Virus genome (UHGV): UHGV-1665900
DNA from: a virus
Length of the DNA stretch: 21,906 bases
Reading direction: 5' to 3' (one strand)
Shown: in pieces, positions 389-12,130 of the stretch
Numbering within the stretch: the stretch's first letter is position 1
Layout of the letters: every line of letters begins with the position of its first letter
Position numbers and translations under genes: made by a program
The notes under the pieces: generated by a model
Databases searched by the model: none
Told to the model about the DNA's origin: nothing
The model's input: only the letters and a program-made list of their open reading frames with translations

Positions 389-751
389 CTAGAGAATACA
401 AAGAACATCATCTGGTGTTAACACAGAGTCTTCTACGTACTCAGGGTGGTTACGTAATACATCTCTCTGATGTCTCAAGATCTGCGCTGGAATTTCTTGC
501 TCATCCACAATTTTGGCAGTATCCAGCAAAATACTGCCACACCTTATTTCCAGCGAAACAAAGCGATTCCACTCTGGACCATTAGAACACAAAAGGTCAA
601 ACAAAACCTCACCTGTAGCCTGTGAATTGCCCAGTATAACAGAAAGCCTCTTCTCGATTTCGTGAACTGAAGTCAAGGGGTTCTCGTAGCCAGTCGCCAT
701 AACGACGGCAATGAGAGCCCCTGAGACGTTAACACCTGTTATTTCAAACAA
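389..751 (-). CDS. hypothetical protein, 120 aa, second gene of the AT-rich two-gene cassette
   Basis: ORF from the track. Its start codon is TTG at 751..749 with an AAGGA Shine-Dalgarno about 8 nt upstream, embedded in the last codons of the upstream gene, whose TGA stop is at 746..744. The overlap implies translational coupling. I recognise no family. Confidence 0.5.
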   Translation of the reverse strand: MFEITGVNVSGALIAVVMATGYENPLTSVHEIEKRLSVILGNSQATGEVLFDLLCSNGPEWNRFVSLEIRCGSILLDTAKIVDEQEIPAQILRHQRDVLRNHPEYVEDSVLTPDDVLCIL

Positions 752-1814
752 TATACAAATCCTTAATAATTCCCCATGCCTGTCTGGCCTTAGTCATCAG
801 TCGTGCCATGTCAGAAACCATACGGCTTGTGTCGACAACTATCTCCATATGAAACAGGCCATGACGTTCTCTGTTAAAGAAAGTATAGGCATCATTAATG
901 GTCTTAACCTTAGCTGACGATAAATTGCATCCAAATTGTTGTTTCAGAATAAATTCACTCCCAATTTTATCAAAATAACGCCCGAAACCATCCTGCGTGA
1001 TTGGCATGCCATATCGGTACATTGTTGATTTAAGTACTCCCTCAACTGAACGTAATTCAGGATACAACAACATACAGTAATCGGGTAAATCGGGGGCGGC
1101 GAGTTTAACACACAGCCCAGAAACGAGCAATTTTTCAACATTCTTATGCAATAGTGGGTACGCATCCCCCATTTCACACTCTAGATGTGAGCGAGCAACT
1201 TCTTTCTGAACTATATACGCTTTGCCATCGTCCTGACGAATGAGAACTTTTTCCAGTCCTTGTAAATCGAGTAGCTCTGACAAGTTGAATATAAACACTC
1301 TATAACATGACAATGGACGCCCTTGTATTTGTAGTGTTCCATTTCTGTGATGCAGACTAACTGTCAACTCATCCTGAAATTCTGGCGAATGAATTTTCCA
1401 CACCGTTGTATGAGTGTTCCGTAAGTATTCGTAAAATTGTATATGTGGCTGCTCTGCTGAGAGCTGAAGTACAGATAAAACGTTCGCTTCAACGAACCCT
1501 TGTAACACCATATTTACCTGTTCAAATTCTGCAGGATTGATGGTTTCATAGAGATCATCAGCCAACTCTTTTCCAAGATTATGATTAGCTCCTGTTTGAT
1601 ACTGGACTGTAGACGTCCCTCCGTTATTATAGAAAATGTTAACAGTTGCCAAAGCTTCTCCTGGTTTAGCAAACACAACCCGAAGTCCTGCTCTTGCACC
1701 AGGCATTGGTCCAATTGAATGGACGGAATAGTTTTTATTTTCAATAAATGCCCTAGACGTAGCCTCAATAGTTGTCCGATCTAAATTTAAATTAGTGTAG
1801 TTCCTGACTGTCAT
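744..1814 (-). CDS. hypothetical protein of unknown function (356 aa from ATG at 1814; 393 aa if the unsupported upstream ATG at 1925 is used), first gene of the AT-rich cassette
   Basis: Long uninterrupted minus-strand ORF in AT-rich DNA. The ATG at 1814 has AGGG about 10 nt upstream; the ATG at 1925 has no purine-rich RBS and lies only about 23 nt inside the foreign-DNA junction. No Walker A, HNH/zinc or transmembrane features are visible by eye. Confidence 0.6.
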   Translation of the reverse strand: MTVRNYTNLNLDRTTIEATSRAFIENKNYSVHSIGPMPGARAGLRVVFAKPGEALATVNIFYNNGGTSTVQYQTGANHNLGKELADDLYETINPAEFEQVNMVLQGFVEANVLSVLQLSAEQPHIQFYEYLRNTHTTVWKIHSPEFQDELTVSLHHRNGTLQIQGRPLSCYRVFIFNLSELLDLQGLEKVLIRQDDGKAYIVQKEVARSHLECEMGDAYPLLHKNVEKLLVSGLCVKLAAPDLPDYCMLLYPELRSVEGVLKSTMYRYGMPITQDGFGRYFDKIGSEFILKQQFGCNLSSAKVKTINDAYTFFNRERHGLFHMEIVVDTSRMVSDMARLMTKARQAWGIIKDLYIV

Positions 1815-1873
1815 TTGCTTAACCCTATAAAAAAATTTAGCAAACTCTACAATATAGCCCCTCTTTAGTCTAA

Positions 1874-2236
1874 TCAGGCGCTGTATCCTGAAATCGGGTA
1901 CCGATAATATCCCTCCTGCAGCCATGTGTTGGTGTTAACAAGATACTGTGTATCAATTGAATCCGTCAGATTGCAAAAGTTGATGCCTCTTTCGCGCAGT
2001 TCCTCCACCAGCACGACAAGATGCCGCATACTGCGCCCTAACCTGTCCAGCTTCCAGACAACCAGAGTGTCACCTGCCGATAATGTCCTGAGCAGTTTTT
2101 TCAGTCCGGGCCTTTCGGACTTCGTACCGCTTATCTTGTCTTCAAAAATCAGTTCACATCCTACACAGTTCAACGCATTACGTTGTAGATCGGTGTTCTG
2201 GTCATTTGTTGATACGCGTACATAGCCAATAAGCAT
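1874..2236 (-). pseudogene. pin: Din-family serine DNA invertase (Pin/Gin/Cin/Hin-like), truncated after about residue 96 and fused to unrelated sequence; probably inactive
   Basis: From ATG at 2236 (GGGAG RBS about 9 nt upstream) the translation is [22 protein letters not shown]...DTLVVWKLDRLGRSM.HL..LV.ELRERGINF..LTDSIDT, which is a serine-recombinase catalytic domain. After LTDSIDT it continues QYLVNTNTWLQEGYYRYPISGYSA*, unlike the expected remainder of the catalytic domain and the C-terminal helix-turn-helix. The [12 protein letters not shown] extension in the ORF track is probably not translated. Confidence 0.85.
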
Positions 2237-2290
2237 GGTGGATCTCCCTGACAAAAGCAGGAATGATGCCATTTGCTCGTTATTTCTGCA

Positions 2291-2316
2291 TTTTCATAAA
2301 CGTTGGTTTGGGAGAA
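2291..2316. other. Din-type inversion crossover site, left copy (pix/gix-like)
   Basis: ttttcataaacg-tt-ggtttgggagaa has the two 12-bp half-sites around a 2-bp core that is typical of hix/gix sites. Its reverse complement ttctcccaaacc-aa-cgttt... matches 4164..4189 at 18 of its first 19 positions. Confidence 0.6.
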
Positions 2317-2637
2317 GCGGCAAAACGGAATGTGGGAACAGGGGAAAATCAGATACCTGATATGTCATCATATGCATCAGGTTCAGGCTGGCGAAAAATG
2401 CCAGATGGTTCAATTGAACAGTGGGGACGAATTAGTTTTCCTGGTGAACACGGGCCTGTATCCGCCAATGTTTCATTCCCGATTCCATTTACACAGACAC
2501 CGGGAATTGTAATTGTGTGCGATGGTGGTTTCGGGGGCGGGAATATGTGGGGGGCGACCAACTGGAGCACTACCGGCTTCATAGCTCACTGCAATTATGG
2601 TCTTGAAGGTGGTGCGTTTTTCGCTAAGGGCTGGTAA
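2303..2637 (+). CDS. alternative tail-fibre C-terminal cassette (Sv'-like), promoterless and without its own start; expressed only after inversion fuses it to the constant part of the fibre gene
   Basis: The open frame reads ...[18 protein letters not shown]...[16 protein letters not shown]...AKGW*. The crossover site encodes (N)VGLGE here and (LEN)LGLGE in the fibre gene at 4164..4189, so inversion would keep the frame. Confidence 0.55.
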
Positions 2638-3080
2638 TGATGAAATATCTGTACGTAAACAACCTGGCATATCCTTACGAACTTCAGTCTCTTTATGTTG
2701 AAAAAGGTGAATGGCCTGAAGAAAAAGGTGTTGATATAGACGAAGTAATTTTCAGGGAATATTTCTATGATACACCACCAGAAGGAAAATACAGATGTGT
2801 CGGAGAGGATGGACTGCCTGCATGGGCAGATATTCCTCCACCAACACGTGAAGAACAAATTGCATCAGCCGAAACTAAAAAGCAGCAATTGATTAACCAG
2901 GCCAACGAATACATAAACAGTAAACAATGGCCAGGTAAAGCATCAATTGGTCGTCTGAAAGGTGAGGAACTGGCGCAATATAATTTGTGGCTGGATTATC
3001 TGGACGCACTGGAACTGGTCGATACTTCCGGTGCGCCAGATATTGAATGGTCTACGCCTCCGGCAGTTCAGGCCAGATGA
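2637..3080 (+). CDS. tail fibre assembly protein, alternative copy (U'-like)
   Basis: 147-aa ORF whose ATG overlaps the stop of the Sv' cassette (TAATG). Its C-terminus ...LWLDYLDALELVDTSGAPDIEWSTPP resembles the conserved Tfa C-terminal motif and parallels the minus-strand copy (...LDYIDAVTATDTSTAPDVIWPELP). It converges on that copy. Confidence 0.8.
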   Translation: MMKYLYVNNLAYPYELQSLYVEKGEWPEEKGVDIDEVIFREYFYDTPPEGKYRCVGEDGLPAWADIPPPTREEQIASAETKKQQLINQANEYINSKQWPGKASIGRLKGEELAQYNLWLDYLDALELVDTSGAPDIEWSTPPAVQAR

Positions 3081-9527: not shown

Positions 9528-11363
9528 TTACCTGCCAAAGCGCGTATAGCCAACATCATGGCTGACATCAAAACCGCTGGATCGCGTTTCCATAACCCGC
9601 ATACCCGGAGGCGAATTCACAAAAGAGACCTTGATCTCACCATCAACTTTTGGCGCAGTAGCTTTATTAATCATGAAGGGATTCGGGCCTGTGGCATCGG
9701 AGGCGTTGTTTGACTGAGCCAGATCTACCGCCGGATAAGGTGTGTATCCCCGTGCCGGTATTCCCGTCCCATAAGCATCATAAGCACCCGCGCCCCACTG
9801 CGCAGAGTTAATGGCATCGACCGTGTCTCCGGAACTGTCGGTAAACCACTCAATAATTGGCTTCAGCTTGTCCCACATATCCTGAAACCACTTAACAACC
9901 GGCCCCCAGTTATTGATCACCATCCCCAGCGGCGACCAGGCAAAAACTTTCTTAAGGAGTTCCCAGCCAGCCTCAAAATAAGGACCAATGGTTTCCCAGA
10001 GCTTCTTGAAATAAGGTCCGACAATATCCCAGTTAGTGATAATTAATCCCGCAGCCAGGGCTATCGCCGTCGCAATCATGCCAATCGGCGTCATCGACAT
10101 GATCCTGCTGACAATGCTGATGGCACTGCCCACGCCCATCAATCCCAGTTTCAGAATCGCAAGACCGGCAGCAAGCCCGACGACGCCGCGAATAACCCGG
10201 GGATTTTCATCCGCAAACTTCGTGAATTTTTCCCCCAACTCCCCCAGCCATTGCGTGATATTTTTAGCGTCACCAGAAAATGCGCCGCCAATAGCTGCAA
10301 GACCGTTAGTTGCGGTCCCCGTCATTGCCTCCCACAGGTTGGACAGCGTACCAAGCTGTGCCTGAACACGTTTATTCAGGCTGGCCTGTTTATGCATCTT
10401 CTGCTGGATCTGATCGTAACCATCCTTTCCTTTATCGATCAGAGCATTGACCACCTGAAGGGTTTCGGCATCATCACCAAATATTGCCTTAAGTACACCG
10501 GTTCGCTTAACGTCGGTCAGTTTTCGCAGCTTTGCCAGTTGCCTGAACATGTTATCAAGACCGCCAAAACTCCCTTTGCCATCAGTAAAATCGAGCTGTA
10601 CCCCGAGTTTCTGGCGGGCCATGATTTTATTGACGTCCCTGATTTTCTTAACGCTTAATCCGGACTGGATAACTTTTCGCAGGGCATTACCTGCCGACTC
10701 CCCGTTCATCCCCATCTGATCCATCATGACACTGATGGGGGCAAGACTCTGTGCAGCCTGAAGACCGTCCTTATTCACCATCTTCAGAACAGAGCTGGTT
10801 TTAGTGAAGAATGACAGCATGTTGGTGTCGTCAACGCCCAGATAAAACGCCTTCTGAATTGTGTCGAACAGCCCCATCATGTCTTCTGAGGCCGTTCCGG
10901 TAGCATCCTGCATCTTTGCGGCAAACTCGGCAGCCGCTTCCGGTGTTTTTTTCAGTTGTACCGCAAGATAAGCTGTCGCTTTACCCACACCACCCAGAAT
11001 GTTTTCTGCCGGGATCCCCTGACGCACCAGCATCTGCATCATGTTCTGGAAATCAGCCGTTGTACCGGGTAGCTGGTTACCCAGGCCAATAGCCAGTTTA
11101 TTGATGTCCTGAAAGCTCTTTCCGACCTCACCGTTCGCATCCATCATGGCAACTTTCAGCCCGGTGGCGGCGTTTTCCTGATCGGCATAAGATTTCAGGG
11201 AAAGCGTCAGACCCGCAGCCAGTCCGCCACCAAGCGCCAGCCCACCCTGTGACGCTTCTTCCGCCTGGCGTTTAAATCCCCGGATTTTCTTTTGCATTTT
11301 CGACAGCGCGGGAGAAAGCCTGTCGACACCGGTGATCAACGCCTTAAGCTCAAATTCAGCCAT
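9528..11363 (-). CDS. tail tape measure protein
   Basis: 611-aa ORF, Ala/Gly/Leu-rich with hydrophobic stretches, directly after the chaperone frameshift pair and before the baseplate genes. Confidence 0.85.
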   Translation of the reverse strand: MAEFELKALITGVDRLSPALSKMQKKIRGFKRQAEEASQGGLALGGGLAAGLTLSLKSYADQENAATGLKVAMMDANGEVGKSFQDINKLAIGLGNQLPGTTADFQNMMQMLVRQGIPAENILGGVGKATAYLAVQLKKTPEAAAEFAAKMQDATGTASEDMMGLFDTIQKAFYLGVDDTNMLSFFTKTSSVLKMVNKDGLQAAQSLAPISVMMDQMGMNGESAGNALRKVIQSGLSVKKIRDVNKIMARQKLGVQLDFTDGKGSFGGLDNMFRQLAKLRKLTDVKRTGVLKAIFGDDAETLQVVNALIDKGKDGYDQIQQKMHKQASLNKRVQAQLGTLSNLWEAMTGTATNGLAAIGGAFSGDAKNITQWLGELGEKFTKFADENPRVIRGVVGLAAGLAILKLGLMGVGSAISIVSRIMSMTPIGMIATAIALAAGLIITNWDIVGPYFKKLWETIGPYFEAGWELLKKVFAWSPLGMVINNWGPVVKWFQDMWDKLKPIIEWFTDSSGDTVDAINSAQWGAGAYDAYGTGIPARGYTPYPAVDLAQSNNASDATGPNPFMINKATAPKVDGEIKVSFVNSPPGMRVMETRSSGFDVSHDVGYTRFGR

Positions 11364-11774
11364 GTGTGCGTTTCTCCTGCTCTATCCTGTTTGCCTGACT
11401 GACCAGCAAGGGAATTTCACTGATCGGCATATTCAGCAATTCGAAGGGATTAATGCGCCAGTAGCTGGCGCAGTCAAAGAAGCGATCAGTGAGGTATTCA
11501 GCCGTCAGGCCTGGAGGAAAAAACCAGCCACAAGCCACGCCGCTGCATTCAGGTCTGCCGGAGACATCTGGTCGACAGAGCTTTGCGGCACTTTCGCCAG
11601 CCGCACAATGTATTTCGACACCACATGCGCCAGAAGTCTGACGGACTCATCCTGATTCATCTGGTAGGGATACCCCAGCTCGCGGACATCCTTCCCGGTG
11701 GGTTCATCAAACTCCAGTACGGAGAGTGTCTCACCATGAGCGATAATCGGTTTCTTTAACTCAAGCTCTTTCAT
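11356..11774 (-). CDS. tail assembly chaperone, long form made by programmed -1 frameshift (G-T-like fusion)
   Basis: The 89-aa ORF (11505..11774) and the 60-aa -1-frame ORF (11356..11538) overlap at a T_TTT_TTC slippery heptamer (plus-strand 11517..11523). The -1 frame ends 8 nt inside the tape measure start. Confidence 0.55.
11505..11774 (-). CDS. tail assembly chaperone, short form
   Basis: 89-aa ORF between the tube and tape measure genes. Confidence 0.7.
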   Translation of the reverse strand: MKELELKKPIIAHGETLSVLEFDEPTGKDVRELGYPYQMNQDESVRLLAHVVSKYIVRLAKVPQSSVDQMSPADLNAAAWLVAGFFLQA

Positions 11775-12130
11775 TACTGGTAATCCCCTTCTTCACCGTG
11801 AAATTCAATATCGACCGTGCCTTCTTCGGCATTATGGTTCGCTTCGCCGTGCAGCCAGGCTGACGACAATACATAGACCTGACCGTTCGCCAGCTCGGCA
11901 GTGATGGTCATCTCATCAGACGAGGTGATTTTGCTCACCGGAAAATTCTTCGGCACCTTGAAGGTCCCTTTGACATAAGGCGCACGGTGAGTTTCCTTGC
12001 GGTCCACTGAACCGTCCAGGCCGATGATGTCATCATTGACCGTCCTGTTCATGGGCACCTCAATGCCGCCGGTCAGCGATAGCTGCTGACCGTCAATTTT
12101 GAAATAACAGGTTCCCCCGATACGGGCCAT
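11774..12130 (-). CDS. tail tube protein (Mu M-like)
   Basis: 118-aa ORF immediately downstream of the sheath gene, with start/stop overlap. Confidence 0.8.
   Translation of the reverse strand: MARIGGTCYFKIDGQQLSLTGGIEVPMNRTVNDDIIGLDGSVDRKETHRAPYVKGTFKVPKNFPVSKITSSDEMTITAELANGQVYVLSSAWLHGEANHNAEEGTVDIEFHGEEGDYQ

Follow-up and report, generated by a model that had tools for sequence, protein, structure and literature searches.

In phage P2, the tail assembly chaperone gene of the FETUD tail operon yields two products, E and E+E', by a -1 frameshift at the heptamer T_TTT_TTG (Christie et al., 2002, as cited in PMC3091744), and the P2 record NC_001895 annotates this shift with lengths of 91 amino acids (aa) for E and 142 aa for E+E' at the site GTC GGT TTT TTG. 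The corresponding lambda pair, G and GT, arises by a -1 shift at G_GGA_AAG (Levin, Hendrix and Casjens, 1993; Xu, Hendrix and Duda, 2004, 2013, 2014, summarised in PMC5009743), and a -2 frameshift is described for gp41 of phage Mu (Xu et al., 2004, as cited in PMC5009743 and PMC2628397). PMC5009743 summarises a functional model based on lambda and P2, in which G coats the tape measure protein, T recruits the tail tube protein, the ratio of the two products is critical and both are absent from the virion. The locus described here belongs to the UHGV virus genome UHGV-1665900, a stretch of 21,906 nucleotides (nt) that is called the window below, and the element it represents is an SfV/SfII-type prophage with a Mu-like contractile tail. 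Its tail assembly chaperone gene very probably contains a programmed -1 ribosomal frameshift of the P2 E/E+E' type, by which an 89-aa protein (G) would be extended by a second, overlapping open reading frame (ORF; T). That a G-T fusion is made by recoding of some kind at the T-run is almost certain.

All genes concerned lie on the minus strand, and coordinates refer to the window (Table 1). The 3' end of G reads GCT GGT TTT TTC CTC CAG GCC TGA on the coding strand (A G F F L Q A stop). A sequence-only reading of the window had proposed that the 89-aa chaperone ORF, ending in VAGFFLQA, carries a canonical slippery heptamer, ggT_TTT_TTC, shortly before its stop, that the -1 frame stays open for about 50 more codons and terminates over the tape measure start, and that a product of about 15 kDa results. 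The sequence features so described are all present, and the interpretation as a frameshift is supported. The heptamer begins at the third base of the Gly codon and hence stands in exact X_XXY_YYZ phase, 9 nt upstream of the zero-frame stop. The first codon of T, CCT, reuses the last base of the heptamer and is followed by CCA GGC CTG; 48-49 of the 53 open codons of this frame lie past the G stop, and the T stop codon (TGA, 11358..11356) overlaps the tape measure start by 8 nt. The mass computed for the fusion is close to the proposed value. By comparison, the +1 frame shuts 2 codons beyond the G stop. The predicted GT junction reads ...AAWLVAGFFPPGLTAEYLTDR, with the junction tryptic peptide VPQSSVDQMSPADLNAAAWLVAGFFPPGLTAEYLTDR, and the C-terminal peptide of the zero-frame product is ...WLVAGFFLQA. 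Regarding the neighbouring genes, the start codon of G overlaps the stop codon of the tail tube gene (TAATG), the tape measure gene has its own AGGAG at 11378..11374, and the 141 nt between G and the tape measure gene (11364..11504) contain no zero-frame gene.

Table 1. Features of the chaperone locus, in coordinates of the 21,906-nt window
Feature	Position	Strand	Basis
Tail sheath gene, 498 aa	13626..12130	-	PF04984, PF17482, PF17481
Tail tube gene, 118 aa, directly upstream of the chaperone	12130..11774	-	PF10618 Tail_tube, E=6e-33
Zero-frame chaperone G, 89 aa, 9.9 kDa, stop TGA 11507..11505	11774..11505	-	ORF translation, PF10109
Slippery heptamer T_TTT_TTC	11523..11517	-	X_XXY_YYZ phase; codons GGT TTT TTC = Gly84 Phe85 Phe86
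-1 frame extension T, 53 codons (PPGLTAEY...EKRTHG)	11517..11356	-	Translation; phrog_32181, E=4e-40
Predicted fusion GT, 139 aa, 15.8 kDa	join(11774..11517, 11517..11356)	-	Conceptual -1 slip
Hairpin uGCGCCAG-cua-CUGGCGCa inside the T ORF, 8 base pairs (bp), 3-nt loop	11472..11454	-	
Tape measure gene, 611 aa, ATG 11363..11361	11363..9528	-	PF10145, TIGR01760

A heptamer followed by an open -1 frame in one sequence alone is weak evidence and only suggestive. In mononucleotide shuffles of the window, 1.4% of the ORFs of at least 60 aa showed an in-phase heptamer within the last 30 codons together with at least 40 open -1 codons past the stop; in the real window, just two other ORFs did so, both of them spurious and nested out of frame in real genes. 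Because of this single-sequence chance, the case rests on conservation in relatives and on the location of the gene, with the tube gene on one side and the tape measure gene on the other; these put the site far beyond chance. The assignment of G as a tail assembly chaperone follows from its profile match to PF10109 (Phage_TAC_7), described as 'tail assembly chaperone proteins, E, or 41 or 14', with 55.3 bits against a cut-off of 25, E=6.8e-15 and coverage of profile positions 2-78 of 79. The match extends over G residues 4-86 and thus stops at the slip site. A chain related to the chaperone by sequence was not found among solved structures.

The comparison with the described systems places this unit closest to P2. 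The sequence-only reading had seen a match to the conserved G/G-T type of frameshift; the conserved layout of tail chaperone frameshifts is indeed present, but the closest proven relative is P2 E/E+E' and not lambda G/GT. Both P2 and the window have the gene order sheath, tube, chaperone and tape measure, and P2 gpE likewise matches PF10109 at positions 2-78 of 79, with the match also ending at its proven slip site. Moreover, the GGT_TTT_TTN (Gly-Phe) context and the -1 direction are common to both, the products are almost equal in length (91/142 aa in P2 vs 89/139 aa here), and the fusion stop overlaps the tape measure start in both. The differences concern the last base of the heptamer (G in P2, C here), the distance from heptamer to zero-frame stop (18 nt for E vs 9 nt here) and an identity of only about 24% over the whole protein; furthermore, the rest of the tail module is Mu-like here and not P2-like. 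The T extension of the window has no match to the E' family PF06528 (Phage_P2_GpE) at E<=1, and only a Bordetella relative, which shares the motif FHWPPSEL with P2 E', reaches a sub-threshold score (15.7 bits vs 23). A T-domain profile of 10 sequences aligned with P2 E' by hhalign gave a probability of 77% and E=2e-5 over 33 columns. This suggests remote homology, in that T resembles the P2 E' domain without being a member of PF06528, and the whole G-T unit is regarded as a probable diverged homologue of P2 E/E+E'.

As in lambda, two ORFs overlap in the interval from the major tail gene to the tape measure gene and, as proposed here, a low-level -1 slip fixes the ratio of short to extended chaperone; a stimulatory structure is not required in lambda. 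Lambda also supplies the functional model, G binding the tape measure protein and T the tube subunit. Nevertheless, sequence similarity is not detectable, Gly and Lys tRNAs slip in lambda compared with Phe and Phe here, and lambda has a siphovirus tail as opposed to a contractile one. Of the features that mark the G/GT type (Xu, Hendrix and Duda, 2004), the SfV/SfII-type gene shows the position, an overlapping startless ORF, an in-phase slippery sequence and conservation; the further marks, two proteins with a common N-terminus made in a fixed ratio, both needed for tail assembly and absent from virions, are predicted here. Regarding Mu, the tail genes on either side resemble those of Mu (sheath L, tube M, DNA circularisation N, gp45), the chaperone occupies the same slot, and gp41 scores 24.7 bits against PF10109, just under the 25-bit cut-off. 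However, gp41 is a 144-aa protein of PF23746 (Gp41_Mu), a family that G of the window does not match, and BLASTP gave no alignment between the two. In the Mu record (NC_000929, L103 2950..3117), there is no in-phase heptamer and the extension lies in the +1/-2 frame beside CGG_GGG_CGA, which agrees with the published -2 shift. With no sequence similarity and a different frame, Mu gp41 was ruled out as the closest relative. A tail module of the Mu-like kind is therefore able to bear a -1 site in the style of P2 where Mu itself has a -2 site. The frameshift cassettes of dnaX, IS911 and IS3 share the X_XXY_YYZ heptamer and tandem slippage with the predicted event, but here an upstream Shine-Dalgarno (SD)-like element is lacking and no stem-loop or pseudoknot 5-9 nt downstream is demonstrable.

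Conservation was followed by inspecting the junction in about 75 distinct sequences from phage records, 160 viral contigs and 12 bacterial genomes of nine genera (Shigella, Edwardsiella, Buttiauxella, Scandinavium, Citrobacter, Atlantibacter, Kluyvera, Erwinia and Pantoea). The loci were retrieved via subgroup alignments, the alignment of all lineages being too diverse. A tblastn search with the predicted fusion detected both of its halves at identities down to 39-44%, as separate pieces that each lay in a frame of their own. Nearly all of the approximately 75 loci hold an in-phase T_TTT_TT(C/T/G), down to about 35% protein identity, including EPP-1, AH07, SfIV, ST64B, phiP27, BgVeeders33, DVM-2008, PG1, Bordetella PBb002 and the 12 enterobacterial genomes. 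Heptamer, phase and open -1 frame persist in lineages whose proteins are 35-45% identical and whose zero-frame stop has shifted. This stop lies 9 nt after the heptamer in the subfamily of the window (GGT_TTT_TTC), 63 nt in SfIV, ST64B and phiP27 (CGT or AAT_TTT_TTT), 48 nt in phage PG1 (C_CCT_TTT_TTG) and 30 nt in Burkholderia phage BgVeeders33 (GGG_TTT_TTT_C), Pseudomonas DVM-2008 (AGT_TTT_TTC) and Bordetella PBb002 (GAT_TTT_TTG). The zero-frame product ranges from 89 to 111 aa by lineage, compared with a constant 138-140 aa for the fusion, which always ends at the tape measure start. Within the subfamily, T_TTT_TTC is invariant in 15 + 29 distinct sequences; in other lineages T_TTT_TTT or T_TTT_TTG stands at the homologous position. 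The codon before TTT varies (GGT, CGT, AAT, AGT, GAT, CCT) yet ends in T, and the last base of the heptamer is C, T or G. A varying codon and a varying last base combined with a fixed phase are what ribosomal slippage on an X_XXY_YYZ heptamer demands, and they are the signature of a constraint on this heptamer, rather than on the length of the run. The loss of the -1 ORF with the heptamer retained, named by the sequence-only reading as evidence against a frameshift, was found in none of the examined loci.

Selection on the site was assessed in 15 distinct sequences of the subfamily. In the region encoding only G, the third codon positions are variable at 75 of 82 sites. In the region encoding only T, the diversity at the three codon positions of the -1 frame is 0.21, 0.13 and 0.41, and this coding periodicity shows the -1 ORF to be under purifying selection. 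GGT, TTT and TTC show no silent variation in these sequences, compared with a diversity of 0.64-0.76 at the silent sites just upstream. When 133 degenerate codons with a mean silent diversity of 0.41 were scanned, the strongest minimum fell at nt 250-266, that is, at the heptamer and the short dual-coding overlap, with a run of 5 invariant silent sites (permutation p=0.007). The view that heptamer and -1 frame are functionless and only the 89-aa protein is made could appeal to the chance rate given above and to the weakness of the bare UUUUUUC heptamer in a reporter. It is effectively refuted by the comparative data, namely the conservation of site and ORF across lineages with 35-45% identical proteins, the purifying selection on the -1 frame, the frozen silent sites of the heptamer and the homology of the unit to the proven P2 case, and pure coincidence is hardly conceivable.

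The T ORF might instead be an independent small gene of 60 aa, translated alone from a GTG at 11538. Such a frame does exist in the list of ORFs, where a GTG-start ORF at 11538..11356 covers T, and record ON470584 and phrog_32181 treat T in this way. However, an SD sequence is absent before this GTG, and the codon is not conserved among relatives. ATG, GTG and TTG are absent throughout the -1 ORF of two related loci (L020 and L102), and SfIV and L099 have their only ATG just 4 codons short of the ORF's end. Most of the remaining loci offer a first possible start only behind the conserved motif FDCASYWRINP, and no SD precedes it. Ribosomes can thus reach the conserved half of T only from G. Independent initiation of the T ORF was accordingly ruled out, as neither a start nor an SD is conserved and some relatives are devoid of any start codon; a separate T gene is thus very improbable.

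The arrangement in two frames is itself maintained, as almost all homologues in a large protein database are 89 aa long and the three full-length 'fusions' found there are scrambled indel artefacts. Insertions of 1 nt that join the frames of G and T occur in four of about 170 related loci. In L023 (IMGVR_UViG_2534681784_000009), the run has eight T where ST64B has seven, and in L110 and L111 (IMGVR_UViG_2585427747_000001 and 2585427730_000011) GG before the run has become GGG; all three encode exactly the predicted -1 fusion. L024 (IMGVR_UViG_2529292715_000008) has an extra G and joins the frames 30 nt downstream of the run. These variants could reflect phase variation at the DNA level, in which the gain or loss of one base at the run would toggle a prophage between making only G and making only GT. 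Against this, they are rare and located at homopolymers in older draft or metagenome assemblies, which fits sequencing error or decay, and the IMG assemblies behind L110 and L111 have consecutive numbers. Moreover, more than 1,000 complete Escherichia coli genomes hold the region at 95-100% identity, the database 'fusions' are artefacts, and a prophage making only GT should, by analogy to lambda, be defective in assembly. Phase variation is thus scarcely to be expected, and the four variants are most likely due to errors in sequencing or to decay of the prophage.

According to the proposed mechanism, most ribosomes would read GGT TTT TTC CTC CAG GCC TGA and release G. In a minority, the tRNA-Phe in the P site (UUU) and that in the A site (UUC) would both slip back by one base onto U_UUU_UU, where each re-pairs with UUU, and the -1 frame would then be read for 53 codons to give GT, which has its first 86 residues in common with G. 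By homology to P2 and analogy to lambda, G and the G part of GT would coat the tape measure protein and the T domain would recruit the tail tube protein. A fixed ratio of G to GT, set by the slip efficiency, would be needed for correct tail assembly, and neither protein would be part of the virion. These roles in assembly are transferred from P2 and lambda and are to be read as proposed functions.

The efficiency of the heptamers can be judged from -1 frameshifting in an E. coli reporter with a background of about 0.05% (Sharma et al., PMC4066793, Table S3). UUUUUUC gave 0.12% as a bare site, 0.89% with the IS911 stimulators and 7.6% with the IS3 pseudoknot; the respective values were 0.33%, 0.45% and 10.2% for UUUUUUU and 0.12%, 0.25% and 0.77% for UUUUUUG, the heptamer of P2 (PMC4066793). 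UUUUUUC and UUUUUUU belong to the efficient H_HH.U_UU.Y class in E. coli (Sharma et al., PMC4066793). UUUUUUC is hence competent for frameshifting, with a yield that depends on the context.

Several observations weigh against a programmed ribosomal frameshift at this site. The bare heptamer exceeds the background of the reporter only about twofold, so a useful yield probably needs a context or stimulator, and none is established. A conserved SD-like element (GGAG, AGGA or GAGG, 6-17 nt upstream) is present in no lineage, the folding of the first 60 nt downstream is not more stable than that of shuffled sequences (z=+0.15), and the sole conserved hairpin begins 44 nt past the heptamer, beyond the reach of a canonical stimulator. 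In addition, Paraburkholderia phage IPK (L106, PV588664.1, an UNVERIFIED record) has GGC_TTC_TTC, with neither a T-run nor an in-phase heptamer, and therefore the heptamer is not universal. The T ORF of IPK (L106 ~1140..1400) is still in the -1 frame and opens no earlier than 9 nt ahead of the G stop (ACT GAG GGC GCG TAA), so that its slip site, if there is one, must differ from the T-run heptamer. Finally, the fusion protein of this phage group is a prediction from sequence, and the insertion of one U into the transcript gives an identical protein (...GFFPPGL...), so that sequence and protein data cannot separate the two mechanisms.

This last point leads to transcriptional slippage, in which RNA polymerase would add one U at the six T of the window, or at the seven of SfIV and ST64B, and thereby produce an mRNA that encodes G and T without a change of frame. 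A homopolymer is present at the site, and in E. coli genes both UUUUUUU and AAAAAAA are underrepresented whatever the phase, which Sharma et al. partly attribute to transcriptional slippage. The loci with T8 (L023) and GGG (L110 and L111) encode the predicted fusion, and an insertion at this place consequently gives a functional frame. On the other hand, a run of six bases is short for efficient slippage of the polymerase, the known bacterial cases using runs of about 8-10 bases. What the lineages keep is the phase and not the length; in many of them the last base is C or G where a T would lengthen the run. Besides, both the annotation and the citing literature treat the shift of the P2 homologue as translational. 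Slippage is therefore inferred to be ribosomal rather than transcriptional, because the phase is conserved, the last base is variable, the run is short and P2 provides a precedent; the efficiency at the T-run is likewise inferred. Polymerase slippage as the source of the fusion is considered improbable.

The sequence-only reading had also called for a search for a downstream RNA structure, and this search gave a mixed outcome: some excess of folding was found, but a canonical stimulator could not be demonstrated. The 117 nt downstream of the heptamer fold with z=-3.3 against shuffles. This fold contains a weak outer helix of 5 bp, which starts 6 nt after the heptamer and never varies, and a long-range helix of 10 bp between 11492..11483 and 11426..11417, which shows some double changes among relatives but is broken in divergent members; its third part is the 8-bp hairpin of Table 1. 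A stem-loop or pseudoknot 5-9 nt downstream of the heptamer was not demonstrable in the window fold. In a synonymous-recoding control, with codons resampled from the usage of each locus, the window reached z=-1.85 and 4% of the recodings were as stable; z was negative in 15 of 16 lineages, native mRNAs being generally somewhat more structured than recoded ones, and the support of this control for a downstream structure is suggestive only. Across lineages (L004-L009, L014, L017, L020, L099, L102, L105 and L107-L109; 120 nt downstream of the heptamer were folded, 117 nt for the window), the z-scores against shuffles were -3.3, -3.7, -2.5, -2.0, -3.5, -2.8, -3.5 and -1.2 with TTTTTTC, -1.7, +0.4 and -2.4 (P2) with TTTTTTG, and +0.45, +0.6, -1.1, -0.4 and -1.5 with TTTTTTT. 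In this small and phylogenetically non-independent sample, the folding excess loosely follows the type of heptamer, being strongest with TTTTTTC and missing with TTTTTTT.

The conserved hairpin within T encodes C-A-S-Y-W-R and starts 32 nt after the G stop, in RNA that is translated only by frameshifted ribosomes. Its stem, including four silent sites, is identical in more than 40 distinct sequences of the subfamily, with only a loop base varying, and it shows the second-lowest silent-site diversity in the gene. Covariation evidence is absent, as the stem never varies. The hairpin sequence is not repeated elsewhere in the window. It was also considered as an intrinsic terminator or a known RNA family and rejected as both, being unlike a terminator and giving no match in Rfam. 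In P2, Burkholderia phage BgVeeders33 and Pseudomonas DVM-2008, the stretch encoding the same aromatic motif, about 45-65 nt past the heptamer, likewise contains a GC-rich stem. The hairpin of the window reflects a real constraint outside the range of canonical stimulators. A tentative, rather doubtful suggestion is that it acts as a functional cis-element of a kind undescribed for tail chaperone frameshifts, either a distal modulator of the slip or an element of mRNA boundary or stability. As a modulator, it would tune the slip efficiency and make up for the weak U_UUU_UUC; as a boundary, it would set the ratio of abundant upstream products (sheath, tube, G) to scarce downstream ones (tape measure, baseplate). 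This frozen distal hairpin is the only feature of the locus that possibly holds something new.

The main consequence of the predicted frameshift concerns annotation. The chaperone region is 98-99% identical to that of the Shigella phages SfII, SfI and SfV and of the Escherichia phages vB_EcoM-689R6 and SKA5, reaches 99.9% identity in a prophage of E. coli APEC O78 and is matched in 1,099 of 5,426 complete E. coli genomes. Ribosomal slippage is annotated in none of nine annotated records inspected. The Prokaryotic Genome Annotation Pipeline (PGAP) calls G a 'phage tail assembly protein' and leaves the following 141 nt empty, and in ON470584 the -1 ORF stands as a separate hypothetical protein. 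The T extension matches phrog_32181, a 63-aa family of unknown function, which appears to be made up of mis-called frameshift extensions. The 139-aa product is missing from the inspected records, including the references for SfV, SfII, SfI, SfIV, ST64B and phiP27. The word 'frameshift' is absent from the genome papers of SfI and SfIV, and the prophage clusters visible in the screen of Sharma et al. (2014, PMC4066793) do not appear to include this chaperone family. Thus, about 1,100 of the 5,426 E. coli genomes and the SfV-type phage references would be affected, and the recorded proteomes of this very common family of prophages would lack a tail assembly protein that is probably essential. No new principle is involved; a known recoding mechanism is extended to another lineage, in which it is unannotated in every inspected record. 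For the engineering of SfV-type tail clusters, e.g., Pseudomonas tailocins, recoding or codon optimisation of the chaperone gene would silently destroy the slip site.

The genes of Table 1 are part of a full structural module in the window, which comprises an HNH endonuclease, terminase, portal, protease, capsid and connectors and, for the tail, sheath, tube, chaperone and tape measure, proteins like Mu N and gp45, baseplate and fibres. For the Phage_TAC_7 domain, an unexpected second role has been claimed in Burkholderia gladioli, where a protein with this domain (Bg_9562) is presented in PMC5581363 as a secreted antifungal effector. At its left end, the window carries an RnlA/RnlB (RNase LS toxin-antitoxin) cassette on the minus strand, with rnlA at 1925..744 and rnlB at 751..389. 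This cassette adjoins and overlaps a resolvase-type DNA invertase ORF (2272..1874, minus strand) of 132 aa only, which comprises the N-terminal catalytic domain alone. The adjoining invertible tail-fibre segment (plus strand, 2263..3080) may be locked as a result of this truncated invertase.

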